This document shows positions 28,323 to 43,229 of a stretch of DNA of 64,000 nt, piece after piece. The DNA is taken from assembly GCA_963755025.1 (NCBI GenBank), contig CAVWIH010000037.1:1-64000 (forward strand). The letters are read 5' to 3'. Source of the DNA: an uncultured Actinomycetes bacterium (lineage in GTDB: Bacteria; Actinomycetota; Thermoleophilia; UBA2241). The translations under genes and the position numbers were made by a program. The notes below the pieces were generated by a model, which saw only the letters and a program-made list of their open reading frames with translations, searched no databases and was not told where the DNA came from. Position 1 is the first letter of the stretch; the number at the start of each line of letters is the position of its first letter.

Positions 28323-28332
28323 CGCGCGCCCC

Positions 28333-28704
28333 CTAAAGGCCCAGTAGCTCGTTGACCTGGGCGACCAGCGTGGCCGGCTCGACCGGCTTGGACTGGAACT
28401 TCTCGACCGGCACGATCTCGTCGTCGCGGTCGATGGTGAGGCCCATGGCGGCATTGACGGAGGTGAGCATGATGATCGGCTGGGCGAAGCCCTGGCGGCG
28501 CAGCTCGCGCGCCATGATGAGCCCGTCGTCGGGCTCTTCCATCATGACGTCGAGGATGAGCAGATCGGGCTTGACGTCGGCGACCTGCTGCAGGCCTTCG
28601 ACACGGTTCGAGGCGCATTTGACCTGGAACCCCTCTTTTTCCAGGACGAGTTTGCAGGCCTCCTGGATGTCGGGGTCGTCGTCGACGATCAGGATCTTGG
28701 ACAC
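28333..28704 (-). CDS. Single-domain response regulator
   Basis: GTG after AAGGAG; ILIVDDD, LILDVMM, IIMLTS and KP; no output domain. Confidence 0.92.
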   Translation of the reverse strand: MSKILIVDDDPDIQEACKLVLEKEGFQVKCASNRVEGLQQVADVKPDLLILDVMMEEPDDGLIMARELRRQGFAQPIIMLTSVNAAMGLTIDRDDEIVPVEKFQSKPVEPATLVAQVNELLGL

Positions 28705-28823
28705 CTTGCACTCCTTCAGCTCGATTGCCAGCGTCGTCACGGTGTTTCGCGCGGCCCCGTCGGGTGCGTGCGAACGTGGGCCGAGCCCCAGTGGCGCACT
28801 GTGCGCCGGGGGCAGGAGTCGCT

Positions 28824-28841
28824 TTGCAGATTCTTTCACAC
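28824..28841 (-). promoter_or_regulatory. Possible degenerate Rex box upstream of the RR-diaphorase-hydA1 unit
   Basis: Minus strand GTGTGAA-AGAA-TCTGCAA versus consensus TTGTGAA-N4-TTCACAA (4 mismatches). Confidence 0.3.
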
Positions 28842-29018
28842 GACGAGCCCAACGGCCAGAGTAAAACGACGCTCTGGAGCAGGGGAAACAGCGTGCGCGC
28901 GGGGCATCGCTGTGGCGGGCCGCGGGATCGCGGGGCGGCTGGGGCCGAAAAGGGCGCTCAAGCCCGTCGACTGCGCGCCGCACCGTTCGGGACCGCCGCC
29001 CGCGGGGGGCTGGCGGCT

Positions 29019-30185
29019 TCAGCTCGCCGAAGCCGTCTCGGGGGCCGCCGTCTCGGCCGGCACCTCGGCGTCGTGCAGGGTGACGGTGAAGGTGCTGCCC
29101 TCGCCGGCGACCGACGTTACAGAGGCGTCGCCACCGTAGAGGTTGGCGAGCTTCTTGACGGTCGACAGGCCGAGGCCACTGCCCAGGATGTTCACGGTGT
29201 GCTCGTTCTTGATGCGCGTGAACTCGTTGAAGAGCTTGGCCGCCTCGCCGGCGGTGAGGCCGATGCCGGTGTCGGCCACGGTCAGGGTGACGGTGTCGTC
29301 GGCGCGCCGCAGCGCGACGTCGACGCGGCCGCCGTCGCGGTTGTACTTGACCGCGTTCGAGACGAGGTTGTTGAGCACGATCTCGATCTCACCGGAGTCG
29401 GCGCGCAGCGACAGGTCGGCCGGGCAGTCGACGGCGATCGTAATGCCGCGCTCGGCGGCCTCGCCCTGGAACAGGTCGATCGAGGTCGCCACCAGCTCGC
29501 CCAGGGCGACGTCGGTGAACACGCGCTGCTTCTGGCCCGACTCGATGCGCGTAAGGTCGAGCAGGTCGAAGATGAGCTTCTTCATGCCGTCGAGGCGCAG
29601 CAGCGAGCGCTCGATCATGCGGCGGTCGTCGGCGGGCACGTCGTCGCGCAGGATATTGAGGTAGCCCTGCACGGCGTTCAGCGGCGACTTGAGCTCGTGG
29701 GCCAGCACCGAGATGAAGTTGAAGCGGATCTGGCGGCGTTCCTCGGCGAGCTGGCGGGCCTGGCGGCTGAGGATGAGCTGGGTCGAGGCCTTGCGCAGGC
29801 CGTAGCGCAGCTCGTCGGGCGAGAACGGCTTGGGCAGAAAGTCGTAGGCGCCGAGCTTGGTCGCCTTGACCGCCGTCTCGAAGGTGGCGTAGGCGGTGAT
29901 GAACAGCGTGAGCGCCTCGTGGCCCTGGTCGCTGACCTCCTGCAGCACGTCGAGGCCGTCGATGCCGGGGAGCTTGAGGTCGAGCAGCAGCAGGTCGAGG
30001 TCGGCGCCCGCGGCCAGGGCCGCGAGAAAGTCCTCGCCCGACTGAAAGTGGGAGAACTCGTAGCGCACGTCGATCTGCACGTCGGGCAGGTGGAACGTGT
30101 AGCGGTTGACGATGCGCTGTACGCCCAGGCACAGCGCCTCTTCGTCGTCGACCATGACGACTTTGAGGGTCTGGCTCTCGCTCAC
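29019..30185 (-). CDS. Hybrid response regulator-histidine kinase (REC-HisKA-HATPase)
   Basis: VMVDDE, LLLDLKLP, ITAY, KPF, then AHELKSPL, NLVSNAVKY, DTGIG and GSGLGL. Confidence 0.93.
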   Translation of the reverse strand: MSESQTLKVVMVDDEEALCLGVQRIVNRYTFHLPDVQIDVRYEFSHFQSGEDFLAALAAGADLDLLLLDLKLPGIDGLDVLQEVSDQGHEALTLFITAYATFETAVKATKLGAYDFLPKPFSPDELRYGLRKASTQLILSRQARQLAEERRQIRFNFISVLAHELKSPLNAVQGYLNILRDDVPADDRRMIERSLLRLDGMKKLIFDLLDLTRIESGQKQRVFTDVALGELVATSIDLFQGEAAERGITIAVDCPADLSLRADSGEIEIVLNNLVSNAVKYNRDGGRVDVALRRADDTVTLTVADTGIGLTAGEAAKLFNEFTRIKNEHTVNILGSGLGLSTVKKLANLYGGDASVTSVAGEGSTFTVTLHDAEVPAETAAPETASAS

Positions 30186-30222
30186 GACCGTCCTTTCGCC
30201 TTGCCCCGGCTGCGCGCCAAGT

Positions 30223-32229
30223 CTACAGCTCGTGCCGCGGCAGCGTGACGACGAAGGTCGTCTCGGTGGGTCCGGCGGCTGGGTCGGCGTTCGATTCGAC
30301 CTTGATCTGGCCGCGGTGCATCTTGACGATGCCGTGGGTGACCGCCAGGCCAAGGCCGGTGCCCTTGCCCACCTGCTTGGTGGTGAAGAAGGGGTCGAAG
30401 AGCTTGTCCATGTTGGCGCGGGGAATGCCCACGCCGGTGTCGGTGACCATGAAGGTGACCTCGTCGGCCGTGTCGCTCAGGCGGATGATGAGGGCGCCGC
30501 CCTCGGGCATGGCCTGCTGGGCGTTCGAGACGAGGTTGGTCAGCACCTGGACCATCTGGTCGGCGTCAAGCTCGGCGACCGGGTCGTCCATGGTGCTCTC
30601 GACGCGCACCATGATGTTCTCGTCGAGCGGCATGGTGCGCAGCGTGTCGTTCACGAGCTCGACCAGGTTGGTGGGCTGGCGCACGACGCGGCTCTGACGG
30701 GCGAAGTTGAGCAGCCCGGAGATGATCTTCTTGCAGCGGTTGGCCTGGTCGACGATGAGCTTCAAGTCGTCGGCCATCTCGGCGTTCTGGTCGATCTCTT
30801 CGAGCAGTATGTTGGCCTGCAGCAGGAGGATGCCGAGCGGGTTGTTGACCTCGTGGGCGATGCCGGCGGCGAGCTGCCCCATGCTGGCGAGCTTCTCGGA
30901 CTTGACCAGAGCCTCTTTGGTCGACTCGAGCGAGCGGTGCGAGTCTTCGAGGTCGCCGACGGTGGTCGAGAGCTTCTCGATCACGAACGGCAGGCACATG
31001 GTCTCTTCGGCGATGCCCTGGTAGACGGCCACGGCGTGGCGCCGGCAGGTGCCGTAGCCGCAGGCGCCGCAGTTGAGCTCGTCTTCGGGAGTGGTCTTGT
31101 TCATGCGCCGCAGGATGGCGGTGATGTCGGCCTCGGTGGGCTCGACCAGGAAGCGCTCGTCTTGCGGGGTGAAGGTGCGCGACAGGTCGATGCCGGCGAA
31201 GGCTTGCATGTTGGCCTCCCAGGCGGCCTGGTCGAAGCCCTCGCTCAAGTGCTTGGCGTGGCGGCTGATCTGGGCGCGACGCCGGTAGAGCGGTTCGTCG
31301 TTGCTGAAGCCCACCCCGGCGATGCAGCCCTCGCAGGCGAGGATGTCGAGCAGGCGGACTTCGGATTCGCCGTGCTCGAAGTCGTTGATGGCCTCGACGA
31401 AGTGCTCCATGCCGTCGGCGGCGATGATCTCGCCGGTCATGAGGTCTTCGGGCAGATTCGCGGCCTGCAGCAGGCCGCGCGCCAGCGGGAACAGCGAACC
31501 CTGCGAGCCGTGCGGCGGGTCGAACGAGTCGCCGGCGCCGGGCTTGGGGACGATGTGGCGCTCGGCGAACATCTGGCGCAGCTCGGCGAAGGTGAGCACG
31601 GCGTCGATCTCAAAGAGGATGTCGGCGCTCGCCGCCTCGCCTTTCTTGGCGATGCAGGGGCCGATGAACACGACCTTGGCGTCGGGGCCGTGCACCGACG
31701 GGTCGTGCAGCACGCGCGACATGGCGATCATCGGCGAGGCGATGGGCGCCAGCGACGACGTGAGGTCGGGGTGGTACTTGCGCACAAACGAGACCACGGC
31801 CGGGCAGGGCGTGGCGATGTAGCGCGCGTCGCTGTTGTCCTCGAGGAGCTTCGCGAAGGCGCGCGCCACGAGGTCGGCGCCGAAGGCCACTTCGTGCACG
31901 GCGGCAAAGCCGAGCTCGCGGGTCATGGCGACCAGCTGGGCTTCGTCTAAGTCGGTGAACTCGGCCGGGAAGCTCGGCGCGATGATGGCCATGACCGAGC
32001 GGCTCGAGTCGAGCAGGTCGAACGTGCGGTCGACCTCGCCGTAGGCCTGCTTGGCGTTCTGCGAGCAGACCCGAAAGCAGTTGGCGCAGCCGATGCAGCG
32101 CGAAGGAATGACGCTGGCGCGCCCGTCGACCACGCGGATGGCTTCGGCGGGGCACTCGCGCACGCACGCATAACAGCGCCGGCAGCGCTCCTTGATGGTG
32201 GTGACGAGTCCGTCTTCGCCGATCAGCAT
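30223..32229 (-). CDS. Sensory (group C-like) [FeFe]-hydrogenase fused to a histidine kinase
   Basis: 2x[4Fe-4S]; variant H-cluster motifs ATPCPAVV, IGPCIAKKGE and LACEGCIAG; NCGACGYGTC...MCLP FeS domain; then SEKLASMG...AHEVNNPL, DTGVG and FDPFFTTK...GTGLGL. Confidence 0.9.
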   Translation of the reverse strand: MLIGEDGLVTTIKERCRRCYACVRECPAEAIRVVDGRASVIPSRCIGCANCFRVCSQNAKQAYGEVDRTFDLLDSSRSVMAIIAPSFPAEFTDLDEAQLVAMTRELGFAAVHEVAFGADLVARAFAKLLEDNSDARYIATPCPAVVSFVRKYHPDLTSSLAPIASPMIAMSRVLHDPSVHGPDAKVVFIGPCIAKKGEAASADILFEIDAVLTFAELRQMFAERHIVPKPGAGDSFDPPHGSQGSLFPLARGLLQAANLPEDLMTGEIIAADGMEHFVEAINDFEHGESEVRLLDILACEGCIAGVGFSNDEPLYRRRAQISRHAKHLSEGFDQAAWEANMQAFAGIDLSRTFTPQDERFLVEPTEADITAILRRMNKTTPEDELNCGACGYGTCRRHAVAVYQGIAEETMCLPFVIEKLSTTVGDLEDSHRSLESTKEALVKSEKLASMGQLAAGIAHEVNNPLGILLLQANILLEEIDQNAEMADDLKLIVDQANRCKKIISGLLNFARQSRVVRQPTNLVELVNDTLRTMPLDENIMVRVESTMDDPVAELDADQMVQVLTNLVSNAQQAMPEGGALIIRLSDTADEVTFMVTDTGVGIPRANMDKLFDPFFTTKQVGKGTGLGLAVTHGIVKMHRGQIKVESNADPAAGPTETTFVVTLPRHEL

Positions 32230-32630
32230 GGCGGCTCTCCAAGCAGCTCGCGGACCTTGGCGACCAGGGCCGTGGCATCGAGGGGTTTGTCGAAGTAGGC
32301 GTCGACCTTCATAGAGGCGAGGTCGGCCGCCGAGTGCGGCGTGAAGTCGAGGCCCAGCGCGGTGGTGACCGACGTCGACATGATGATCGGCACGGCCGTG
32401 GTGCGGGGGTCGTCGCGCAGCCGCTTCGACAGCGAAAAGCCGGAGTCGACCTCGCTCATCATGAGGTCGGTGATGACCAGGTCGGGCGTCTCGGCCTCGA
32501 CCTTGTCCATGGCCTGCGAGGGGCTGCCGGCGGTGACCACGCGAAAGCCTGCCCTCTCGAGGATGCGGCGGTTGATCTCGAGGAAGTCGTAGTCGTCGTC
32601 GACGATCAGGATGAGTCGCTCGTCTGCCAT
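32223..32630 (-). CDS. Single-domain response regulator
   Basis: ILIVDDD, VITDLMM, IIMSTS and DKP; stop overlaps the start of the sensory hydrogenase. Confidence 0.92.
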   Translation of the reverse strand: MADERLILIVDDDYDFLEINRRILERAGFRVVTAGSPSQAMDKVEAETPDLVITDLMMSEVDSGFSLSKRLRDDPRTTAVPIIMSTSVTTALGLDFTPHSAADLASMKVDAYFDKPLDATALVAKVRELLGEPPC

Positions 32631-32655
32631 GAATCGTCTCCCGCGGTGTGGGCTC

Positions 32656-32692
32656 GGCGGGCGGCGGCGACTGTAAGTCGCCGCCGCCCGCC
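32656..32692 (-). terminator. Hairpin between hydA2 and the phosphorelay genes
   Basis: GGCGGGCGGCGGCGACT-GTA-AGTCGCCGCCGCCCGCC perfect stem with no U tract. Confidence 0.6.
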
Positions 32693-32717
32693 AGCTTACC
32701 ACGCCGCTCGTTGTGCC

Positions 32718-34490
32718 CTAGACGCGGTCCTTGCCCGCGTAGTGCGTGTGCAGGAGGTGGTGAGCCTTCTCGCCACCGGCTTCGCCGAGCCACGTGCTGT
32801 AGAGCTCGAGGACGGCCGGGTTCTCGTGGCTCTTGCGCAGCTCACGGCCCTCGTCTTCGCGGTAGATGGCGGCGATGCGCGCCTCACGCACGGCGTTCGT
32901 GGTGAGCCGCGGCTGGCCGCCGCCGCCGATGCAGCCGCCGGGGCAGGTCATGACCTCGACGAAGTGGTACTCGGCCTCGCCGCTCTTGATGGCGTCGATG
33001 ACCTTCTGGGCGTTGCCCAGCGTGTGGGCCACGGCGACCTTCACCGTGACGCCTTCGAGGAACGACCACTCCGGCACGGCGCCTTCGATCAGCACTTCGG
33101 CGTGCTTGACGCCTTCGAGCCCTTCGATCGGGGCGACGTGCAGGTTCTCGAACGGGAACGGCCGGCCGGTCACGAGCTCGTAGACCGTGCGCAGCGCGGC
33201 TTCCATGACGCCGCCCGTGTTGGCGAAGATGTCGGCGGCGCCGGTCGACAGACCGAGCGGCTTGTCCATCTTCTCGTCGGGCAGGCTGTCGAAGTCGATG
33301 CCGCCCTGCTTGATCATGCGCACCAGTTCGCGCGTGGTCAGCACGACGTCGACGTCCTGCACGCCCGAGTCGTCCATCTCGGGACGCTGGCACTCGAACT
33401 TCTTGGCGGTGCAGGGCATGACGCTGGCCACGAAGATGTCCTCGGGCCGCTTGCCGAGCTTCTCGGCGTAGTAGGTCTTGGCCACCGCCCCGAACATCTG
33501 CTGCGGGCTCTTGCAGCTCGAGAGGTTGGGCAGGAAGTCGGGGTTGTAGTGCTCCATGTAGTTGATCCAGCCCGGCGAGCAGCTCGTGAACATCGGCAGG
33601 GCGACCTCTTGCTTGTCGACCAGCGCCGCCTTGAGGCGCATGAGCAGCTCGGTGCCTTCCTCGATGATGGTGAGGTCGGCGGCGAAGTTGGTGTCGAACA
33701 CGCCGTCGAAGCCCAGGCGGCGCAGGGCGGCGACCATCTTGCCGGTCACCACGGTGCCGGGCTCGTAGTCGAAGCCCTCGCCCAGGGCGGCGCGGATGGC
33801 CGGAGCCGTCTGCACCACGACGTACTTGTCGGGATCGTCGAGGGCCTGCCAGACCGTGTCGATCTGGTCGCGCTCGATGATGGCCCCGACCGGGCAGACC
33901 GCGGCGCACTGGCCGCACTGCACGCAGGTCACGTCGGAGAGGTCGGAAGCAAACGCCGGTCCGATCACCGTCGTGAAGCCGCGGCCCTGCGGGAACAGGG
34001 CGCCCACGCCCTGGGTCTCGTTGCACACCGTGACGCAGCGCCGGCACATGATGCACTTGCCGCTGTCGCGGATGAGCGCGGGCGTGGAGTCGTCGATGGT
34101 CTTGGTGGTCTTCTCGCCTTCGTAGCGGATCTGGTCGATGCCCAGATCGCGCGCCAGGGTGCGCAGTTCGCAGTCGGCGCTGCGGGCGCAGGTCTGGCAG
34201 TTGCCGTCGTGCTCGGAGAGGAGCAGCTCGACGACGGTCTGGCGGCCCTTGCGGGCGAGCGCCGAGTTGGTCTTGACGACCATGCCCTCGGCCACCGGAG
34301 CGGCGCACGAGGCCACGAGCGCCTTGGCGCCCTGGACTTCGACGAGGCAGACGCGGCAGGCGCCGATCGTCTGCACGTCTTCGAGGTAGCACAGGCTCGG
34401 CACCTTGGAGCCGACCTGACGGGCGGCCTGCAGGATGGTGGTGCCGTCCGGGACCTCGACCTTGATGTCGTCTACAGTGAGGGTTGGCAT
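32718..34490 (-). CDS. hndD: Group A [FeFe]-hydrogenase catalytic subunit, HndD-like (system 2)
   Basis: [2Fe-2S], EHDGNCQTC and 2x[4Fe-4S]; H-cluster motifs FTSCSPGW, MPCTAKKFE and EVMTCPGGCIGGGGQP. Confidence 0.95.
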   Translation of the reverse strand: MPTLTVDDIKVEVPDGTTILQAARQVGSKVPSLCYLEDVQTIGACRVCLVEVQGAKALVASCAAPVAEGMVVKTNSALARKGRQTVVELLLSEHDGNCQTCARSADCELRTLARDLGIDQIRYEGEKTTKTIDDSTPALIRDSGKCIMCRRCVTVCNETQGVGALFPQGRGFTTVIGPAFASDLSDVTCVQCGQCAAVCPVGAIIERDQIDTVWQALDDPDKYVVVQTAPAIRAALGEGFDYEPGTVVTGKMVAALRRLGFDGVFDTNFAADLTIIEEGTELLMRLKAALVDKQEVALPMFTSCSPGWINYMEHYNPDFLPNLSSCKSPQQMFGAVAKTYYAEKLGKRPEDIFVASVMPCTAKKFECQRPEMDDSGVQDVDVVLTTRELVRMIKQGGIDFDSLPDEKMDKPLGLSTGAADIFANTGGVMEAALRTVYELVTGRPFPFENLHVAPIEGLEGVKHAEVLIEGAVPEWSFLEGVTVKVAVAHTLGNAQKVIDAIKSGEAEYHFVEVMTCPGGCIGGGGQPRLTTNAVREARIAAIYREDEGRELRKSHENPAVLELYSTWLGEAGGEKAHHLLHTHYAGKDRV

Positions 34491-37400
34491 CAGCGGTTCA
34501 CCTCGGTCTTGGCACAGGTCTTTCCGTAGTCACAACGCAGGCAGCGCCGCGCTTCGGCGACGGCCGTCTCGGCCGCCCACGAGAGCTCGACTTCGTCGAA
34601 GCCGCCGACACGCGCGCTGGCGGCCAGCTCGGGCACGACGGCGCGCGGCGTCTCGACGGGGATCGGCGTCGGGGTCGAACGCGGTGTCGACCGCGACGTC
34701 GCGACGCCAGAAGGCATGGTTGGCGCCGGTGAGGAACGAATCGATGGAGACGGCGGCCTTCTCGCCGGCTCCGATGGCGGCCACGACCGAGGCCGGACCC
34801 GTGACGGCGTCGCCGCCGGCGAAGATCCACTCGACCGAGGTACGGCCGTCCTTGTCGGTCTTGAGCCAGCCCTTCCTGGTGGTCTCGACCGAGACGCCGT
34901 CGAACAGCGGCGCGCTGTCGAGCCACTGGCCGATGGCGGCGATGACCTGGTCGCACTCGACGACGAAGTCGGCGTTGCGGCCGGCGACCGGGCGGCGACG
35001 GCCGCTCGAGTCGTAGTCGCCCAGGGTCATCGGGCGGCACTTCACGCCGACCAGCTTGCCGGCGGCGTCGTGCACGATCTCGACCGGCGCGACGAGCGGC
35101 TGAAGCACGATGCGCTCGTCTTCGGCGGCGTCGATCTCTTCGGCCCACGCGGGCATCTGGGCGCGCGTGCGGCGGTAGAGGATGGTGACCTGGTCGGCGC
35201 CGAGGCGCAGGGCGGTGCGGGCCGCGTCGATGGCGGAGTTGCCGCCGCCGATGACCGCGACGCGCTTGCCGACCTCGACCGTGCCGTCGACGTTGTAGGT
35301 CTTGAGGAACGACAGCGCTTCGGTGACGCCCTCGCCGTCTTCGCCGGGCACGCCGATGTTGGAGCCCTGCGGGGCGCCGACGCCGAGGAACACGGCCTCG
35401 AAGCCGTCGTCGTGCAGGCCCTGGAGGGTGAAGTCGCGCCCGAGCGCCTTGTCGCACTCGAGGGCGACGCCCATCTCCTGGATCATCGAGATCTCGCGGC
35501 CGAGCTCTTCGCGCGGCAGCCGGTAGGCCGGGATGGCCTGCACGAGCATGCCGCCGGGGGTCGAGGCGGCCTCGAAGATGGTCGGCTTGTAGCCCAGGCG
35601 AGCCAGGAAGTAGGCGCACGACAGGCCGGCCGGACCGGAGCCGATCACGGCGACCTTGCGCTTGGCGTTCTCGTCGCTCACGAGGACCTCGGGCAGGGCG
35701 ACCACGGTCTCCTGCTCGGTCATGAAGCGCTTGACGCCACGGATGGCGACGGGCGCGTCGAAGCCGGCGCGCTGGCACTTGCTCTCGCAGGGGTGGAAGC
35801 ACACGCGGCCGCAGATCGAGGCCAGCGGGTTGCGCTCGCGATGCAGCACGAGGGCCTCGTCGAAGCGCTTCTCGCCGACCAGGCTCACGAAGCCCGGCAC
35901 GTCGACGTCGGCGGGGCAGGCGTTGGTGCAGCGCGCCTTGAACATGGTCGCGCAGACGCCGGCTTCGCAGTGCTTGTCGAGGATGTGGGCTTCCCACTCG
36001 TGACGGAAGTGGCGGATCATCGACAGCACCGGGTTGGGGGCCGTCTGGCCGAGGCCGCACAGCGCGGTCTCCTTGATCATGGCGCCGAGCTCCTGCAGAC
36101 GCTCGATGTCGCCCTCTTCGCCCTGGCCGTCGCAGATGCGGTCGACGATCTCGAGCATGCGCTTGGTGCCGACCCGGCAGGGCGGGCACTTGCCGCAGCT
36201 CTCTTCCTGGGTGAACTCGAGGAAGAAGCGCGCCATGTCGACCATGCACGAGTCCTCGTCCATGATGACGAGGCCGCCGGAGCCCATGATGGCGCCGAGC
36301 TCCTGGAGCGACTCGTAGTCGACCGGACGTGTCGAGGTGCTCAGTAGGGCACGCAGCCGCCGGAGGGACCGCCGATCTGCACGGCCTTGAGCGCCTTGCC
36401 GCCGGGCACGCCGCCGCCGATCTCGTTCATGATCTCGCCGAGCTGCATGCCGATCGGCACTTCGACCAGGCCGGTGTTGGTGATGTTGCCGCCCAGGGCG
36501 AAGACCTTGGTGCCCTTGCTCTTCTCGGTGCCCGTCGCGGCGAACCACTCGGCGCCCTTGAGGATGATGGGGTTGATGTTGGCGTAGGTCTCGACGTTGT
36601 TGAGCACGCTGGGCTTGCCCCAGAGGCCCTTGACCGCCGGGAACGGCGGGCGCGGGCGCGGCTCGCCGCGGTGACCTTCGATCGAGGTCATGAGCGCGGT
36701 CTCTTCGCCGCAGACGAAGGCGCCGGAGCCCATGCGGATCTCGAGGTCGAAGGCAAAGCCCGTGCCGAGGATGTCGTCGCCGAGGAGGCCGTAGTCGCGC
36801 GCCTGGTCGATGGCGTACTGCAGGCGCTCGACGGCCAGCGGGTACTCGGCGCGCACGTAGACGTAGCCCTGATGGGCGCCGATCGCGTAGGCGCCGATGG
36901 CCATGCCCTCGATCACCGAGTGCGGGTCGCCTTCGAGCACCGAGCGGTCCATGAACGCGCCCGGGTCGCCTTCGTCGGCGTTGCAGAGGATGTACTTGGT
37001 CTCCTCTTTCTGCTGCTGGGCGAAGCGCCACTTGAGGCCGGTCGGGAACCCGGCGCCGCCGCGGCCGCGCAGGCCCGAGGCGAGCACTTCGTCGACGATG
37101 CTCTCGGGGGTCATCTCGGTGATCGCCTTGGCGAGCGCGCCGTAGCCGTCGCGGGCGATGTAGTCCTCGATGCTCAGCGGGTCGATGAGGCCCGAGTTGC
37201 GCAGCACGATCTTGACCTGGCGGTTGAAGAACTCGACGTCGTGCATCTCGGCGATCGACTTCTCGGTGCCGGGCGCGGTGCTCACGAGGCGCGGTACGAC
37301 GCGGCCCTTGAGCAGGTGCTCTTCGACGATCTCAGCGACGTCGGGCACCTTGATGTTCTGGTAGAAGACGCCGTCGGGGTAGACGAGCGCGACCGGGCCC

Positions 37401-37561
37401 ACGGCGCACGGCCCCAGGCAACCGGTCTCGACGACCTGGACTTCGCTCGCCAGGCCGTGCTTTTCGAGCTCCTCGCTGAACGCGGCGCTGACGGCCAGCG
37501 CGCCCGAGGCGATGCAACCGCCGCCGGTGCAGACGAGGACGTGGCTTCTGAACTGCTCCAT
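34490..37561 (-). CDS. HndC/HydB-like flavin subunit fused to a GltD-like FAD/NADP(H) oxidoreductase (frameshifted near 36340 and 34670)
   Basis: Thioredoxin-like [2Fe-2S] N-terminus, [36 protein letters not shown] and [10 protein letters not shown]; then [43 protein letters not shown] and EARRCLRC. Stop overlaps the hndD ATG. Confidence 0.88.
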
Positions 37562-37574
37562 ATCCGCTTCCTTC

Positions 37575-37946
37575 CTACGACCGGATCAGCAGCGCGTCGA
37601 CCGGCTTGCCGCCGACGAGGTGCTCGGTGACGATCGTCTTGACCTTCGCGTCGTCGAGCAGCCCGTAACGGTAGGGCGTGTCGCTCGCGTCGCGGACGGT
37701 GATCATGGGCTCCTGCTCGCAGAGGCCGGCGCAGCCGGCCTGGCGCAGCGTGACGTCGTCGACGCCGGCCGCGGCCATCTCGCGCATGAAGGCGGCGATC
37801 ACGCCGCGCGCTCCGGCGGCGATGCCACAGGTGCCCATATGGACCGTCACCTGGATCTCCTTGGTCCCCTCACGCAGCTCGACCGAGGCCTTCGCCCTGT
37901 CGGCCATCGCCTTGAGGTCTGCGGCGCTCTTGATCTTCTCGGCCAT
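37575..37946 (-). CDS. hndB: HndB-like thioredoxin-type [2Fe-2S] subunit
   Basis: VHMGTCGIAAGA, GCAGLCEQEP and EHLVGGKPV motifs. Confidence 0.9.
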   Translation of the reverse strand: MAEKIKSAADLKAMADRAKASVELREGTKEIQVTVHMGTCGIAAGARGVIAAFMREMAAAGVDDVTLRQAGCAGLCEQEPMITVRDASDTPYRYGLLDDAKVKTIVTEHLVGGKPVDALLIRS

Positions 37947-37950
37947 GGCG

Positions 37951-38481
37951 TCAGGCACTCCTTTCGGCTGCGGCGGTCTCGGCGGCGTACTCTTCGAGGA
38001 TCGCGCCGATGCGCTTGGGCTTGACGCGGTGGTGCACGTCGTCGTCGATCATGATGACCGGCGCGAGTCCGCAGGCGCCGAAGCAGCGGCCGACCTCGAG
38101 CGAGAAGTTACGGTCGTCGGTGGTGCCGCCGACGTCGATGCCCAGATCTTTTTTGAGCGCGTCGAGCACGCCGACGCCGCCGCGCACGTAGCAGGCCGTC
38201 CCCAGGCAGACCCTGATGACGTGCTTGCCGCGGGGCACGGTCGAGAAGAACGAATAGAAGCCGACCACGCCGGCCACCTCGCTGTAGGGCTTGCCCAGTT
38301 TGAGGGCGACGTGCTTGAGGGCGACCTCGGGCAGGTAGCCGAAGATGCCCTGGGCCAGCTGGAGCACCGGGATAAGGGCGCCCGGCTTGTCCTTGTAGCC
38401 CGCGATCACGTCGTCGAGACGGGCGAGAAGCTCCTCCTCGCTTGCCTCCTCGCAACTGCACTGTTGCAAGACTTCAGTCAT
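37951..38481 (-). CDS. hndA: HndA/HydC/NuoE-like [2Fe-2S] subunit
   Basis: ATG after AAGGAG; LIPVLQLAQGIFGYLP, VCLGTACYVRG and RCFGACGLAP. Confidence 0.93.
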   Translation of the reverse strand: MTEVLQQCSCEEASEEELLARLDDVIAGYKDKPGALIPVLQLAQGIFGYLPEVALKHVALKLGKPYSEVAGVVGFYSFFSTVPRGKHVIRVCLGTACYVRGGVGVLDALKKDLGIDVGGTTDDRNFSLEVGRCFGACGLAPVIMIDDDVHHRVKPKRIGAILEEYAAETAAAERSA

Positions 38482-39143
38482 CCCACGCTCCTTTGCTGCT
38501 GTCGTAAGTCCACAGGATCCACCGTTTGAGTCGTAGCTGTCGGTGCTTTTGGGCCGGATGGTTCGTGCGTCGGGGGTTGGTTCGGGTCGGGTGTGCGACG
38601 CCCGTGGGTGACGGGCGTGGTGGTCGGCATGGCGGCGGGCTCGTCGGCGGTGGCCAGCAGGGCCGTGCAGCGCGCGGCGACCGCGCCGAAGGCGGCCAGC
38701 TCGGCGCCCTGCGCCAGGCAACTGTCGGCGCCGGCCTGGACGTCGAGCACGAGGGTCGCCTGGGGGTTGGTCGCGGCCATCACGGCCACCGACTCGCAGA
38801 CGTCGCCGAGCGGCGCGCGGTCGACGTGCGACAGGCTCATGACGACCTCGATCGCGACGCCGCCCAGGGTGGGCGAGCGCTGCAGGGTGAGGCTGCCGTC
38901 GGCCTCTTCGGCGGCCTCGCGGAACAGCGGCAGGCCGAGGCCCGTGCGCTTGCCGGCCTTGGTCGTGAAGAAGGGGTCGGTCGCCTGGTCGGCGCTCACG
39001 TCGAGGCCGGGGCCGTCGTCGTCGACCGAGATCGCCAGGCGGTCGTGCATGGGGTCGATGACGACCCGCACAGCGACGCGCTCGGCGCCGGCGCGCAGCG
39101 AGTTCTCGATCATCTCGAGCGTGTAGAGGGAGAGGTCATGCAT
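38478..39143 (-). CDS. Stand-alone HATPase_c (kinase-like ATP-binding) protein of hydrogenase loci
   Basis: MHDLSLYTLEMIENSLRAGA, DDGPG, DPFFTTK...GLGLP and HVDRAPLGD; no H-box. Confidence 0.85.
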   Translation of the reverse strand: MHDLSLYTLEMIENSLRAGAERVAVRVVIDPMHDRLAISVDDDGPGLDVSADQATDPFFTTKAGKRTGLGLPLFREAAEEADGSLTLQRSPTLGGVAIEVVMSLSHVDRAPLGDVCESVAVMAATNPQATLVLDVQAGADSCLAQGAELAAFGAVAARCTALLATADEPAAMPTTTPVTHGRRTPDPNQPPTHEPSGPKAPTATTQTVDPVDLRQQQRSVG

Positions 39144-39891
39144 TGACGACCGCCCTGCCTTGCGCCGTTCTGACGGCGAGGGCGACCTCGGCGAAGGTCG
39201 GCGCCTCGAGGGTGAGCGTGGTGGTCGCGCAGCCAACGTCGGCGAGGTAGTGGCTGTCGGAGGAGTGCATGATCGGCAGGCCGTAGTCGGCGCAGGCCGC
39301 CGCCGCCGGCGAGTCGGGCGGCGCGAAGCGCGACAGCTCGACGGCGTCGAAGCCGGCCTCGAACGGAAAGAAGCCGAGCTGGGCGATCACGCCGAAGGTG
39401 GGGCGGTCGATGTGGGCGGCCACGACCAGGCCGCCGAAGCGCTTGACGAGGGCGACCGCTTCGTCGAGCCGCAGCGAGGTCGCCAGGGCGAGCGCGTGGC
39501 CTTCGTGGCCGCACACCGTGCCGGCCGAGTCCATGAGGTACTGCTCGCCGAAGAAGCGCGTGTAGTCGTCGTCGGTGGGCGGCAGCGTGGCGCAGACCTC
39601 GCCGGCCGCGTTGGCCGCCGCGGCGGCGGTGGGGAAGAGGCCGAGGACGTGCACCTCTTCGACCGTGGTGATCTCGATGCCCGAGATGACCGCGAGGCGC
39701 GCGCCGGCGGCTTCGCCCACGGCCCGCGTGTTGCCGGCGGCGTTGTGGTCGCACACGGCGATCATGTCGAGGCCCGCCGCGAGGGCGGCGTCGACGATGG
39801 CCGGCGGCGACATCTCGTCGTCGCCGCAGGGCGACAGCGCGGTGTGCACGTGAAAGTCGGCGAGCAGGGTTTTCACGGCGTCAGGCGACAC
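39136..39891 (-). CDS. PHP-domain phosphoesterase
   Basis: DFHVHTALSPCG, CDHN, GIEITTVEEVH, AHIDR and SSDSH motifs. Confidence 0.9.
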   Translation of the reverse strand: MSPDAVKTLLADFHVHTALSPCGDDEMSPPAIVDAALAAGLDMIAVCDHNAAGNTRAVGEAAGARLAVISGIEITTVEEVHVLGLFPTAAAAANAAGEVCATLPPTDDDYTRFFGEQYLMDSAGTVCGHEGHALALATSLRLDEAVALVKRFGGLVVAAHIDRPTFGVIAQLGFFPFEAGFDAVELSRFAPPDSPAAAACADYGLPIMHSSDSHYLADVGCATTTLTLEAPTFAEVALAVRTAQGRAVVNA

Positions 39892-40237
39892 GACCGCTGC
39901 ATACCCCCAGTGCCCAGAGGCGGCCGACGACCTCGAAGGTGTCGGCCTCGGTGGTGAACAGGTGCAGGTCTTCGGCGACGGCCTTGGCGATCACGTCGGC
40001 GTCGGGCACGCGGCCCGACGAGAAGATGACGGCGGCGAGCTCGGCGTGGCTGGCCACGGCGACGACGTTCAGGTGCACCTGGAGCGTGACGAGCACGCCG
40101 CCCTCGGGCGCGTTGGCGAGCACGTCGGAGAGCAGGTCGGAGGCGTACCCGGCCGTGAGCTCGGCGGTCACGGGGGCGTCGAGCGCCGGCGTCAGGTGCT
40201 CGAGGCCGAGCTCGGTAGCGATGGTCTCCAGGTTCAT
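39881..40237 (-). CDS. DRTGG/HPr-kinase N-terminal-like domain protein
   Basis: GYASDLLSDVLA and VTLQVHLNVVAVA...FEVVGRL, typical of hydrogenase-linked DRTGG proteins. Confidence 0.85.
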   Translation of the reverse strand: MNLETIATELGLEHLTPALDAPVTAELTAGYASDLLSDVLANAPEGGVLVTLQVHLNVVAVASHAELAAVIFSSGRVPDADVIAKAVAEDLHLFTTEADTFEVVGRLWALGVCSGRVA

Positions 40238-40243
40238 TTCTGT

Positions 40244-41794
40244 TCAGCCTCCGTCGGTCGAGCGGTAGGGGCACAGGGTGGCGTCGGCGCGTGCGAGCAC
40301 CACGTCTTCGGCCAGGGCCGCGCACGTGGGGGCGCCGCAGGCGCCGCAATCTTTGCCGGGCAGCGAACGCCGCACGGTCTCGAGGCGGGCGAGCTTCTTG
40401 ATGGCCTTGGCCATGTCGGCGTCGAGGCGTATGCCGGGGCGCGCCGCGAACGGTTCGAGCGGCGCCGCGGTGGGCGGTGCGCTGGCCGCGGGCGCGGCGG
40501 ACGCCGGCCAGCGCGCTTCGGAGAGAAAGGGGTCGTCGGCCAGCATGGGCGAGCCGAAGCAGCCGCCGTCGCACACGAAGAGCTCGAGCGCCGCGGTGGT
40601 CGTGAGCAGGCCGTTCTCTATTTGCTCGAGCACGGCGATCACGTGCTCGATGCCGGTCACGCGCAGCACGCCGTCGTCGGGCCGGGCGGCGGCCAGCGGC
40701 GCAGCCGACTCGTCGTGCCGGTCGGCGAGGTGCGAGAGCACGAGGTCGCGCAGCAGGGCGGGCTCGACGGCGCGGCTCGCGGCGTCGACGCCGCGCGCGG
40801 CCAGCGCGCTGCGCTGGCCCGGGCACGACACCACGTAGGCGGCGCTTGGGTCGGTGCTGACGGCGGCCAGCGACTCCCAGGGCGAGGCGAAGGGCGCCAG
40901 GTGAGCCAGGAGCGAGGGAAAGCGCAGCTCGATCAGGTCGACGACCGAGGGGCAGGCCGGCGAGAGCACCGGCCAGGGGCGCTCGTGGGCCTGGGCCTGG
41001 GCCATGACCTCGCGGCGCAGGGCGTCTTCGAAGTCGTCGACCGAGTGCACGTCGGCAAAACCGGCCTGGGCCAGGGCGTCGCGCACGGAGGCGGCGGGCA
41101 CGTGCTCGCCGAACCCGGCGAGAAAGGCGGGCGGCACGGCGAGCGAGCCGGCGCCGAGGCGCTGCGCGTCGGGCGCCGTGGCGGCCAGGCACAGCGCGCC
41201 CGAGTCGCACACCGCGATGCAGCAGGTGCAGTCGATGCAGAGGTGGGCGAGCACCGACGGCACGCCGTCGCGCACGCGGATGGCGTTGGTGGGGCAGGCG
41301 GTGAGGCAGCGCCGGCAGTCGCGGCACAGCTCGGCGATGACGGCCAGCGACAAGACGGGGTGGGCGACCGCGCGCTCGGGCTGCAGCAGCACGGTGAAGT
41401 GCACCGTGGTGCCCTTGTCGACCTCGCTTTCGAGGGCGAAGACGTCGGAGTTGCTGCGGATGTTGGGCAGGCCCAGGCCGGCGCCGAAGCCCAGGGCGCG
41501 CGCTTCGGCGGGGGCTGTGGACCAGCCCGGCGTGAGCGCCTTCTCCAGGTCGGCGATGCCGGGCCCCTCGTCGATCACGTCGACCTCGAGGCGGCGCTCG
41601 TCGAAGGCCGCGTCGAGGCGCCCGCGATGGGCGTGGATGACGACGTTCATCTCGGCTTCGTAGGCGGCGATCATGGCGCGGCGGATGGCGTCGGAGCGCG
41701 CTCCGATCGACTTGAGGTGGGCTTTGATGGCGCGCGACGCGCCGCCCGCCTCGTTGTAGTCGCCGCCCTCGATGTCGTAGCTGACATGCTCCAC
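40244..41794 (-). CDS. RsbT/anti-sigma-type Ser/Thr kinase fused to a degenerate [FeFe]-hydrogenase-like FeS protein
   Basis: Kinase part AGGAS...IAAYEAEMNVVIHA, DEGPGI, GWSTA and GFGAGLGLPNI; then 2x[4Fe-4S], LSPACPSV, VSCPGQR, VCDGGCFGSP and LPGKDCGACGAPTC. GTG start at 41794. Confidence 0.85.
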   Translation of the reverse strand: MEHVSYDIEGGDYNEAGGASRAIKAHLKSIGARSDAIRRAMIAAYEAEMNVVIHAHRGRLDAAFDERRLEVDVIDEGPGIADLEKALTPGWSTAPAEARALGFGAGLGLPNIRSNSDVFALESEVDKGTTVHFTVLLQPERAVAHPVLSLAVIAELCRDCRRCLTACPTNAIRVRDGVPSVLAHLCIDCTCCIAVCDSGALCLAATAPDAQRLGAGSLAVPPAFLAGFGEHVPAASVRDALAQAGFADVHSVDDFEDALRREVMAQAQAHERPWPVLSPACPSVVDLIELRFPSLLAHLAPFASPWESLAAVSTDPSAAYVVSCPGQRSALAARGVDAASRAVEPALLRDLVLSHLADRHDESAAPLAAARPDDGVLRVTGIEHVIAVLEQIENGLLTTTAALELFVCDGGCFGSPMLADDPFLSEARWPASAAPAASAPPTAAPLEPFAARPGIRLDADMAKAIKKLARLETVRRSLPGKDCGACGAPTCAALAEDVVLARADATLCPYRSTDGG

Positions 41795-41802
41795 GGCGGC
41801 GT

Positions 41803-42873
41803 TCAGACCCGCGCCGACTGGGGGGTCGCCGGAGCGGCCGTGAGGGACTGGTAGATGAGGCCGCAGGTCTCGAACACGCCGATCGGCGAGACCATGAGCG
41901 TGGTGCCCGCGCTGTCGGCCTTGGCGACGATCTCGGGTTCGGGCGAGGCGCCGTTCACAAAGCAGACCGCGGGCACGTCCATGAGCTCGGCGACGCGGAT
42001 CATCTGCAGGCTCATGAGGTTGGTCACCAGCAGGGTGCGGTCGGAGGCTTCGTTCAACAGGTCGCTCACGCGGTCGCCGGCGTAGATCTTCTCGACGATG
42101 CGCTGCGGGCACGACTCGCCCGAGATGATGGTGGCGCCGATGCAGCGCGCCAGTTCGTCGAGTCGCACCTCGCCGCCGGCCAGCAGCGAGTCGAGCTGGC
42201 GCATGAGCGGCACGGCGGCCTTTTCGGCTTCGGCCTCGGCCTCGGCTTCGGCTTCGAGCGGCGTCTCGCGGGCGATATAGGCGGCGGTCTCGAGGGCGGC
42301 GGTGATGTCGACATCGATCACCGAGACGCCCTCGGGTACCTGCAGCGGCGTGGCGGCGAAGCTCACGATGGAGCGCACGCCCGCGCGCACGAGGGTGTCG
42401 GTGACTTCTTGCGCGGCGGCCGGCGGCGTGGTCACCACGGCGATCTGCACGCCGAGGTCGCGCACGGTCGATTCCATGATGGCGGCGGGAAAGCAGCGGC
42501 AGCCTTCGACCCGCACGTCGACCTTGGCGGGGTCGTTGTCGAAGGCCGCGACGATGGCGAGCTTGGGGCGGCGGCCGGCGGAGTGGGCGATGACCGAGCG
42601 CCCCAGCTTGCCGACGCCGACGAGCGCCACGTCCTGGCGGATGGGGCCGTCGAGAAAGCCGCCGATGCTCTCGATGCATTTGTCGACTTCGTAGCCGTGC
42701 GTGGGGCTGCCCGAGTAGCCGATCGACATGAAGTCGCGGCGCACCTGGGCGGCCGTCAGGCCGGCGAGCTTGGCGAGCTGATGGGAGAACACGTGGCTCG
42801 TGCCCGCGTCGCGCAGCGAGATGAGCAGGCGCCGATAGAGGCTCATGCGAGCGATCGTCTTGCGCGAGACCAT
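41803..42873 (-). CDS. rex: Redox-sensing transcriptional repressor Rex fused to a C-terminal DRTGG domain
   Basis: GAGGAGGA RBS; RMSLYRR, SHQLAKLAGLTAAQVRRDF...GY and VALVGVGKLG...AAFDND; (EA)n linker; then IYAGDRVSDLL...LLVTNL...FETCGLIY. Confidence 0.9.
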   Translation of the reverse strand: MVSRKTIARMSLYRRLLISLRDAGTSHVFSHQLAKLAGLTAAQVRRDFMSIGYSGSPTHGYEVDKCIESIGGFLDGPIRQDVALVGVGKLGRSVIAHSAGRRPKLAIVAAFDNDPAKVDVRVEGCRCFPAAIMESTVRDLGVQIAVVTTPPAAAQEVTDTLVRAGVRSIVSFAATPLQVPEGVSVIDVDITAALETAAYIARETPLEAEAEAEAEAEKAAVPLMRQLDSLLAGGEVRLDELARCIGATIISGESCPQRIVEKIYAGDRVSDLLNEASDRTLLVTNLMSLQMIRVAELMDVPAVCFVNGASPEPEIVAKADSAGTTLMVSPIGVFETCGLIYQSLTAAPATPQSARV

Positions 42874-42938
42874 GATCCTCCTCTGACTGACGGGCTGGCC
42901 GGACAGCGGGTGGTGGTGCGTGGTTACGTTACGTAACG

Positions 42939-42956
42939 TTGTGAACTGATTCACAG
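42939..42956. promoter_or_regulatory. Rex operator (ROP)
   Basis: TTGTGAA-CTGA-TTCACAG, one mismatch to TTGTGAA-N4-TTCACAA, about 66 bp upstream of rex. Confidence 0.88.
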
Positions 42957-43229
42957 CGTAACCGGGGACCAAAAGGGTGTCAAGGGCCGCCGGGCGGCCC
43001 GCCGGAAAGGCTTGCGGGCCGCCTTGGACACGGCGTCCAAACGGGTGGGCTCGTCTTCACCTCGCGCGTCAGCGCGCGACGCTATCGCGGCGCCGGGGAG
43101 TCGTTAAGATGACGCTGGAGCTCAGGCGCCGCCAACGCGGTGTGCCCGCAGCGCTCCAGACTCTCGATGCAGTCAGCAAGGTTCTCCGGTTTGGCCAAAC
43201 CGGGGGGCGATCCAGGTGCGGAGGTTCCC

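Follow-up and report, generated by a model that had tools for sequence, protein, structure and literature searches.

Rex is a transcriptional repressor that occupies its operator at a low NADH/NAD+ ratio and lets go as NADH rises. In a stretch of 64,000 nucleotides from an uncultured Thermoleophilia bacterium (contig CAVWIH010000037.1 of assembly GCA_963755025.1, positions 1 to 64,000; hereafter the window), a minus-strand gene encodes a Rex protein that continues, through a flexible linker, into a divergent DRTGG domain. This gene heads a tightly packed minus-strand operon ending in hydrogenase genes, and its product, judging from the comparisons below, is an undescribed and conserved variant of Rex. 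We propose, with a probability of about 0.5, that it acts as an NADH-sensing repressor under its own control, and that the sensor kinase encoded by the adjacent gene docks on, or phosphorylates, its extra domain. The fusion gene and its parts are as follows.

41803..42873, minus strand: Rex-DRTGG fusion gene, 356 amino acids plus stop (stop-free open reading frame; Rex models above their cutoffs; relatives)
42730..42870, minus strand: winged helix-turn-helix (wHTH) DNA-binding domain, residues 2-48 (Pfam PF06971; aligns to solved Rex)
42265..42633, minus strand: Rossmann NAD(H)-binding domain and C-terminal Rex helix, residues 81-203 (Pfam PF02629)
42211..42264, minus strand: flexible linker, residues 204-221 (predicted local distance difference test, pLDDT, below 50; variable in length among relatives)
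41836..42210, minus strand: divergent DRTGG domain with its N-terminal helix, residues ~222-346 (Pfam match below cutoff, homology, fold)
42064..42066, minus strand: codon of Ser270 in the DRVSD patch, a candidate phospho-acceptor (conservation and predicted kinase contact)

The N-terminal part carries all the features of Rex that could be examined, and on these profile and structure matches the fusion protein is a member of the Rex family. In Pfam, Put_DNA-bind_N (PF06971) matches residues 2-48 with 53.1 bits (cutoff, 27) and CoA_binding (PF02629) residues 81-174 with 48.4 bits (cutoff, 22.3). The NCBIfam Rex subfamily model NF003995 spans residues 2-203 with 174.3 bits against a cutoff of 126, and two more Rex models of the same collection, NF003994 and NF003996, score 149.5 (130) and 142.5 (138). 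The alignment to Bacillus subtilis Rex (2vt2) takes in residues 10-207 of its 215 (E 3.4e-27), the family profile matches solved Rex 3keo over profile positions 4-203 (E 2.2e-46), and the predicted structure superposes on the Rex crystal structure 3ket with a template modelling (TM) score of 0.85. A protein search gave 120 relatives among the matches listed, and PF06971 was matched at E <= 0.01 in every one of them. Their NAD(H) site is preserved as well, with the GxGxxG glycines G86, G88, and G91 present in 120/120 and F111 and the acidic residue D112 in 119/120. The wHTH is the most conserved stretch of the Rex half (73% mean pairwise identity). The wHTH, Rossmann domain, and C-terminal helix are common to the fusion protein and to the canonical Rex proteins (Streptomyces coelicolor Rex, Thermus aquaticus T-Rex, and B. 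subtilis Rex/YdiH), as are the GxGxxG motif with its acidic residue and an operator of the TTGTGAA-N4-TTCACAA type at the promoter. The difference lies in about 150 additional C-terminal residues, which comprise the linker and the DRTGG domain; the solved Rex proteins matched by the fusion are 207-224 amino acids long.

Three independent lines of evidence, namely relatives, profile comparison with solved structures, and predicted fold, indicate that the C-terminal part is a divergent DRTGG domain. The Pfam DRTGG profile (PF07085) aligns over its positions 1-104 of 105 with residues 240-342, at 17.9 bits and hence below the cutoff of 25.2. It is matched at E <= 0.01 in only 58 of the 120 fusion relatives (best, 2.6e-4), and DRTGG is never listed in their precomputed Pfam annotation. 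Because the subfamily falls below the Pfam threshold, databases name the protein simply a "redox-sensing transcriptional repressor." When the 140-residue domain was used as a phmmer query against 1.84 billion representative sequences, 722 hits were obtained at E <= 1e-3 and 160 at E <= 1e-10, and most of the 150 matches listed were free-standing proteins of 112-125 amino acids aligned from their second residue. Among 62 sequences chosen from these 150, DRTGG was recognized at E <= 0.01 in 42 and reached its gathering score in 17. A profile built from the domain and 81 relatives matched, among solved structures, AF1212 (2ioj, deposited as "Pfam DRTGG"; E 1.7e-6), the N-terminal domain of HPr kinase (E 1.9e-5), and the regulatory region of CBS-pyrophosphatase (E 1.2e-4).

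The profile of the whole protein reached the DRTGG structure 3l31 only at E 0.4 among solved structures, and in a fold search with the whole protein Rex structures dominated, with 3l2b at rank 44. The domain was therefore modelled and searched alone, since whole-protein searches were swamped by Rex. The isolated model has a pLDDT of 88.6 and a predicted TM (pTM) score of 0.80; solved DRTGG domains head its structural matches, namely 3l2b and 3l31 (E between 1.4e-6, for 3l2b, and 9e-6) and 2ioj, with a TM score of 0.75 and a root-mean-square deviation of 2.5 Å over 116 columns.

Selection acts on the DRTGG domain no less strongly than on Rex, the mean pairwise identity among the fusion relatives being 71% in the former (77% in its core) and 66% in the latter. 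Candidates for the name-giving residues, as read from the sequence, are D267 and R268, which are invariant, and T284, which is followed by N-L and not by G-G. Invariant residues concentrate in A265-G-D-R-V-S-D-L-L273 and in the helices after it; the patch D267-R268-V269-S270-D271 (DRVSD) is invariant in the fusion relatives, and Ser270 is serine in 120/120. In a set of 82 fused and free DRTGG sequences, Ser270 and Ala319 are the sole positions conserved at 90% or more. Cluster look-ups of the stand-alone relatives returned "hypothetical protein" and one metagenome-assembled genome of Planctomycetota, and in a protein atlas the DRTGG clusters stand at 0.86-0.88, below the atlas's own line of 0.9, so that they serve as a lead only. 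The same subfamily occurs with another output domain in P0138, a metagenomic protein of 339 amino acids in which a DRTGG-like N-terminal domain (residues 3-102 match the query) is coupled to an EAL cyclic-di-GMP phosphodiesterase domain.

The two halves are joined by the linker TPLEAEAEAEAEAEKAAV (residues 204-221), whose EAEAEAEAEAE run corresponds to residues 207-217 and positions 42223-42255; the pLDDT of the predicted structure stays below 50 across residues 205-233, linker included. We considered whether an assembly error, in the form of a lost stop codon or an indel, had merged two separate genes. There is some ground for such suspicion, as another gene of the same operon contains frame-breaking single-base insertions in the window, and certain database proteins of 113-118 amino acids start exactly at a conserved internal methionine of the domain. 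The comparative data nevertheless contradict it. Among the 120 listed relatives, 119 are 337-401 amino acids long, with 89-100% coverage and 55-96% identity, and their linkers (all 120) measure 12-32 residues, differ in sequence, have a high content of A, E, G, D, and P, and always keep the frame. A genome scan with one genome per species confirmed 112 loci, 80 of which were kept; all 80 lie in metagenome-assembled genomes with Thermoleophilia, Gaiellales, Actinomycetota, or Actinomycetes titles, except for one titled Deltaproteobacteria. At 77 of these independent loci a single tblastn alignment runs from query residue 10 or earlier to residue 340 or later with no stop between the halves. The alignment is cut by contig ends at two of the other three (L005 and L046), and at the third (L002) the best alignment begins at query residue 76, where the genome scan had matched residues 1-355. 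Stops occur in six alignments, at residues 346-358 only, which is the natural end of the protein. An artefact has accordingly been rejected as having next to no probability, and we conclude from this comparison that Rex-DRTGG is a genuine, lineage-wide Rex variant of uncultured Thermoleophilia-type Actinomycetota. The initial annotation, which had described a complete Rex joined in frame through an EA linker to a full DRTGG domain, is borne out, with the addition that the domain is divergent and scores below the Pfam cutoff; the relatives likewise speak against its concern that close relatives might carry two separate genes.

As for the short database proteins, about 20 clusters of 113-118 amino acids (P0309, P0313, P0321, and P0323 among them) start at the conserved internal methionine, with the consensus MKLEDLA. 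By eye they are very similar to the fused clade, and longer ones start inside the Rossmann domain, which points to truncated gene calls, genuine split genes being the alternative. The internal methionine may be left over from a separate start in an ancestor. Its equivalent in the window is Val236, encoded by GTG at 42166-42168; this codon was dropped as a candidate second start, the only Shine-Dalgarno-like bases being those that abut it. Ahead of the ATG of the fusion gene, by inspection, a Shine-Dalgarno-like GAGGAG is found at a distance of 5 nt.

The promoter region of the fusion gene contains the following elements.

42939..42956: predicted Rex operator TTGTGAACTGATTCACAG, which differs from the Rex consensus at one position; it overlaps the -10 element and also takes in the likely start of transcription
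42955..42983, minus strand: putative promoter, with the -35 element TTGACA at 42978-42983, a 17-nt spacer, and the -10 element TACGCT at 42955-42960

The box at 42939, to which attention had been drawn in the initial annotation, is the sole Rex-box match in the window. In 59 of 78 relatives, a box with no more than three mismatches precedes the gene by 60-138 nt; we estimate a chance expectation of about 0.015 box per upstream region, a figure that serves as a guide only because the regions are related. We regard the operator as credible on account of its position and conservation and not of window statistics. The TTGACA element, the spacer, and TACGCT are conserved in an alignment of 22 upstream regions, and an exact TTGACA occurs in 54 of 78, although a consensus promoter and terminator scanner called no promoter between 42800 and 43200. 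The Rex box starts inside the -10 element and spans the expected transcription start. This is a classic position for a repressor, and the predicted operator so placed implies autoregulation.

Two further palindromes lie in the same region. A perfect one, ACGTTACGTAACGT at 42926-42939, directly follows the Rex box and lies within the probable 5' leader; it is kept in close relatives, other clades have GTTCGTT-CTGT-AACGAAC at that place, and it might serve as a further operator or form a hairpin in the RNA. The other is the inverted repeat TTGGAC-N5-GTCCAA at 43024-43040, about 40 nt upstream of the -35 element, which recurs with no more than one mismatch in 22 of 78 upstream regions and with no more than two in 34 of 78. 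A different regulator, possibly an activator, may bind there.

Downstream of the fusion gene, the operon continues as listed here.

40244..41794, minus strand: sensor kinase, 516 amino acids (Pfam; GTG start 8 nt after the rex-DRTGG stop)
39881..40237, minus strand: stand-alone second DRTGG protein, 118 amino acids (Pfam DRTGG, 19.6 bits)
39136..39891, minus strand: PHP-domain phosphoesterase, a candidate phosphatase (Pfam PHP and PHP_C)
38478..39146, minus strand: second small HATPase_c protein (Pfam HATPase_c, 46 bits)
32718..38481, minus strand: hydrogenase structural genes (Pfam, synteny), namely NuoE-like, small thioredoxin-like [2Fe-2S] ferredoxin-type, NuoF/GltD-like (frameshifted here), and HydA

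Pfam recognizes four domains in the sensor kinase: SpoIIAB-like HATPase_c_2 (PF13581, 38.6 bits), 4Fe-4S ferredoxin, a partial [FeFe]-hydrogenase large subunit, and, at the C terminus, FeS. The best matches of its kinase-domain profile among solved structures are the SpoIIAB anti-sigma F factors 1til, 1l0o, 1th8, and 1tid (E around 1e-7; best, 6.7e-8), and in its N-box (residues 45-54, YEAEMNVVIH) the spacing of E46, N50, and H54 equals that of SEAVTNAIIH in SpoIIAB. The free DRTGG protein is 32% identical to the fused domain (E 9e-12). Its motif YASDLLSDVL is near-invariant, each residue being the majority one in at least 95% of 62 sequences, and the Ser-Asp pair of the fused-domain patch is near-invariant in this paralogue as well.

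The gene order is strongly conserved when each gene is counted only over the loci long enough to show it. The kinase lies directly downstream of the fusion gene in 70 of 71 loci; the second DRTGG gene is in order in 67/69, the PHP gene in 65/67, the small HATPase gene in 65/66, NuoE in 62/63, NuoF in 57/57, and HydA in 49/51. The two exceptions for HydA are L048 and L060, which depart for this gene only; the others are L059 and L036.

A complex of the DRTGG domain with this kinase, the modelling of which had been suggested in the initial annotation, was predicted from the kinase domain and the DRTGG domain with an ipSAE (interaction prediction score from aligned errors) of 0.74 (0.74, 0.74, and 0.75 in separate runs), against 0.00 for the best of three controls. 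A score of 0.74 is reached by 116 of 157 solved complexes and by 2 of 215 mismatched pairs, counts that hold only roughly here as custom alignments were used. At least 96% of contacts recur between the runs, and the partner pLDDT is no lower than 74. In the model, the DRTGG side of the interface consists of residues 267-271, 273-274, 277-278, 286, 288-290, 293-294, and 296-298, a set that for the most part matches the invariant columns. The DRVSD patch is placed against the N-box and the ATP lid of the kinase, and Ser270 contacts E46 and N111 beside the G102-G106 lid. The model supports binding of the DRTGG domain to the neighbouring kinase. The earlier proposal of a direct link between the repressor and the kinase/phosphatase module has thus gained computational support from gene order, DRTGG conservation, and the complex model, the predicted binding and a putative phosphorylation being the parts that we infer.

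From the observed architecture, its conservation, the operator, and the synteny, we build the following model, in which binding, phosphorylation, and the direction of their effect on DNA binding are all conjectural. A Rex dimer would occupy the palindrome in its own promoter, over the -10 element and the transcription start, and through it the Rex half would repress the whole operon, that is, the regulators and the NADH/ferredoxin-linked [FeFe] hydrogenase, until NADH rises, as expected from the established biology of Rex. The DRTGG domain on its flexible linker would offer a docking surface for the product of the next gene, and Ser270 is probably the serine phospho-acceptor of this SpoIIAB/RsbW-type kinase. 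The Fe-S and hydrogenase-like sensor domains would set the kinase activity, the free DRTGG protein would compete for the kinase, and the PHP protein would reverse the modification and reset the system. Such a circuit would resemble a partner switch with DRTGG in the role of STAS and Rex in that of the sigma factor. Promoter occupancy would then integrate NADH/NAD+ with a second redox or H2 signal, and the operon would be on only when both agree. This two-signal gating would suit the enzyme of the operon, which we take to be of the electron-bifurcating HydABC type that uses NADH and reduced ferredoxin together. A farther-reaching version, in which the DRTGG domains of this subfamily are the STAS-equivalent partners and serine phospho-acceptors of SpoIIAB-type kinases and form an unrecognized partner switch with Rex as its output, is one that we hold only tentatively and think rather doubtful.

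Several observations weigh against the proposal that the fused domain is a target of the adjacent kinase under an autoregulated Rex. In one locus (L059, 10001-13328), Rex-DRTGG is followed by the small HATPase and NuoE, and the kinase, the second DRTGG gene, and the PHP gene are absent, so that the DRTGG domain can persist without an adjacent kinase; this locus is the main observation in favor of the alternatives considered below. The full-length model, with a pTM of only 0.56, does not define where the DRTGG domain lies with respect to the Rex core. As for the operator, 19 of 78 relatives have no box at three or fewer mismatches, and a shuffle control gave at least one match at this stringency in 24 of 100 shuffles, which makes the statistics of the window alone weak. 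For the predicted complex, ipSAE expresses how confident the predictor is in itself; as solved SpoIIAB-SpoIIAA complexes are available (1th8, 1thn, 1tid, and 1til), the kinase side of the prediction may in part reproduce these structures, although the partner does not have the STAS fold. This difference in fold also weighs against the proposal, and we know of no DRTGG protein that is phosphorylated.

The DRTGG domain could instead sense a small molecule, a nucleotide or other metabolite, and tune Rex allosterically, with the kinase and phosphatase acting elsewhere, an arrangement that we consider unlikely. The persistence of the domain in L059 would fit such a role, as would what is reported of other DRTGG proteins: CBS-pyrophosphatases respond to adenine nucleotides and Ap4A (bioRxiv 10.1101/2020.04.07.028951), the N-terminal region of class II phosphotransacetylase responds to pyruvate and NADH (PMC12724200), and SpxR is described with DRTGG, CBS, and HotDog as "predicted ligand-binding domains" (PMC9888711). 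The nucleotides of CBS-pyrophosphatase, however, are said to bind CBS and not DRTGG (bioRxiv 10.1101/2020.04.07.028951), the invariant patch in the fusion is the predicted kinase contact, and the kinase, second DRTGG, and PHP genes accompany the fusion in 65-70 of 67-71 loci. These neighbours, together with the Ser-Asp pair common to the free paralogue, would also be left unexplained if the domain were mainly an oligomerization module that assembles Rex dimers into higher-order complexes bridging several palindromes of the promoter. This seems to us quite improbable, even though the promoter has three conserved palindromes, the CBS and DRTGG regulatory part of CBS-pyrophosphatase is dimeric (bioRxiv 10.1101/2020.04.07.028951), and the N-terminal region of phosphotransacetylase is tied to oligomerization (PMC12724200). 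The two other palindromes of the promoter are unlike Rex boxes.

Finally, the flow of information could be reversed, Rex-DRTGG being an NADH-dependent antagonist of the kinase, with the real kinase target elsewhere (e.g., the hydrogenase or the second HATPase) and DNA binding secondary. In partner switching of the SpoIIAA/SpoIIAB kind, the unphosphorylated antagonist inhibits the kinase, and in our prediction the interface covers the ATP lid of the kinase; the operon also holds a second DRTGG protein and a second HATPase protein. DNA binding by the fusion protein is nonetheless clearly under selection, because both the wHTH, with its 73% identity the most conserved stretch of the Rex half, and the operator at the promoter are conserved, and we give the reversed scheme a small chance. 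Our preferred reading remains that of a DNA-binding, NADH-sensing repressor addressed by the adjacent kinase through its DRTGG domain.

In comparison with the SpoIIAB-SpoIIAA and RsbW-RsbV switches, the operon shares a SpoIIAB-like kinase domain, a small alpha/beta partner with an invariant serine predicted on the ATP face of the kinase, and a phosphoesterase gene alongside. It differs in that the partner fold is DRTGG in place of STAS (Pfam found no STAS domain in any of the five proteins encoded ahead of the hydrogenase structural genes), a PHP protein and not a PP2C is the candidate phosphatase, and the operon has no sigma factor, so that the output would be Rex. The operon may work like a partner switch, and it is not a member of the SpoIIAB/RsbW family.

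The CBS-pyrophosphatase (3l2b and 3l31), AF1212 (2ioj), class II phosphotransacetylase, and SpxR are alike in fold to the fused domain, with a weak but full-length sequence similarity, and streptococcal SpxR is likewise a transcription factor bearing a DRTGG domain. None of the four couples DRTGG to Rex or to a SpoIIAB-like kinase; they mostly combine it with CBS, and set against other DRTGG proteins, the subfamily of the fusion is distinguished by scoring below the Pfam cutoff.

A hydrogenase-linked regulatory operon of Firmicutes, Halsa_1862-1871 of Halanaerobium hydrogeniformans, is similar to that of the window (PMC4237134). There, its kinase, Fe-S domain protein, and hydrogenase-like protein are separate genes, whereas the sensor parts are fused to the kinase in the window, and its first gene is an "unidentified ORF" with no Rex listed, at the place where the window has Rex-DRTGG (PMC4237134). 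A putative H2-sensing system of Ruminococcus albus, HydS/HfsB, involves a Ser/Thr kinase, a phosphatase, and Rex (Zheng et al., 2014, as cited in PMC5707799 and PMC10084766). The idea put forward for it is that Rex acts together with a hydrogenase-like sensor and a kinase/phosphatase pair in the control of a bifurcating hydrogenase; the system uses a PAS domain, Rex is apparently a separate protein, and neither a physical link between Rex and the kinase nor a role for DRTGG is described in the citing passages (PMC5707799; PMC10084766). The function of DRTGG was still called unknown in a 2025 paper (PMC12724200).

Our literature search, outside of which lay subscription journals and preprint supplements, found nothing that links DRTGG to Rex or, by title or abstract, to hydrogenase regulation. 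The same search found nothing that joins Rex with a sensory hydrogenase and a kinase/phosphatase, or Thermoleophilia with Rex and hydrogenase. This agrees with the remark of the initial annotation that the Rex plus DRTGG architecture is not known to have been characterized.

Some other features of this region deserve mention. Compared with L001, the NuoF/GltD-like gene (34530-37561, minus strand) carries three single-base insertions in the window, near 36340, 36320, and 34660, which break it into three frame segments; the last of them restores the frame. It is one open reading frame of 1017-1023 amino acids in L001, L004, L007, and L009, and the breaks are either assembly indels or signs of a decaying gene. 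Past hydA, the minus-strand gene at 30223-32793 encodes a candidate second H2 or redox sensor with 4Fe-4S ferredoxin, full-length [FeFe]-hydrogenase large-subunit, FeS, HisKA, and HATPase_c domains. Its neighbours at 32223-32702, 29019-30353, and 28333-28983 are two receiver-only response regulators and a receiver-histidine-kinase hybrid. Downstream of these regulators, a NuoE-NuoF fusion reading frame (26637-28454, minus strand), with a thioredoxin-like 2Fe-2S domain and the 51-kDa FMN-binding domain with its 4Fe-4S region, represents a second NADH-handling module.

Rex has been treated as a one-signal switch that responds to NADH/NAD+, and the extra domain hints at a second control input. 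The DRTGG domain has been without an assigned function since it was named, and the fusion offers a concrete candidate; the kinase/phosphatase/Fe-S clusters beside HydABC-type hydrogenase genes lack a known output, which our model would supply. The fusion and its adjacent kinase, predicted to bind it, tie these loose ends of Rex, of DRTGG, and of the regulatory clusters into one model, in which two redox signals would together control hydrogenase expression at a single promoter. Because the proteins are small and soluble-looking, this model is open to direct work in vitro. If the farther-reaching version, with DRTGG as the STAS-equivalent partner, is true, the fusion would be a "Rosetta stone," predicting that the small free DRTGG proteins of hydrogenase regulatory clusters act on Rex in the many bacteria where these genes are separate. 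It would also provide the first function for DRTGG and the first Rex that is controlled by protein modification in addition to NADH.

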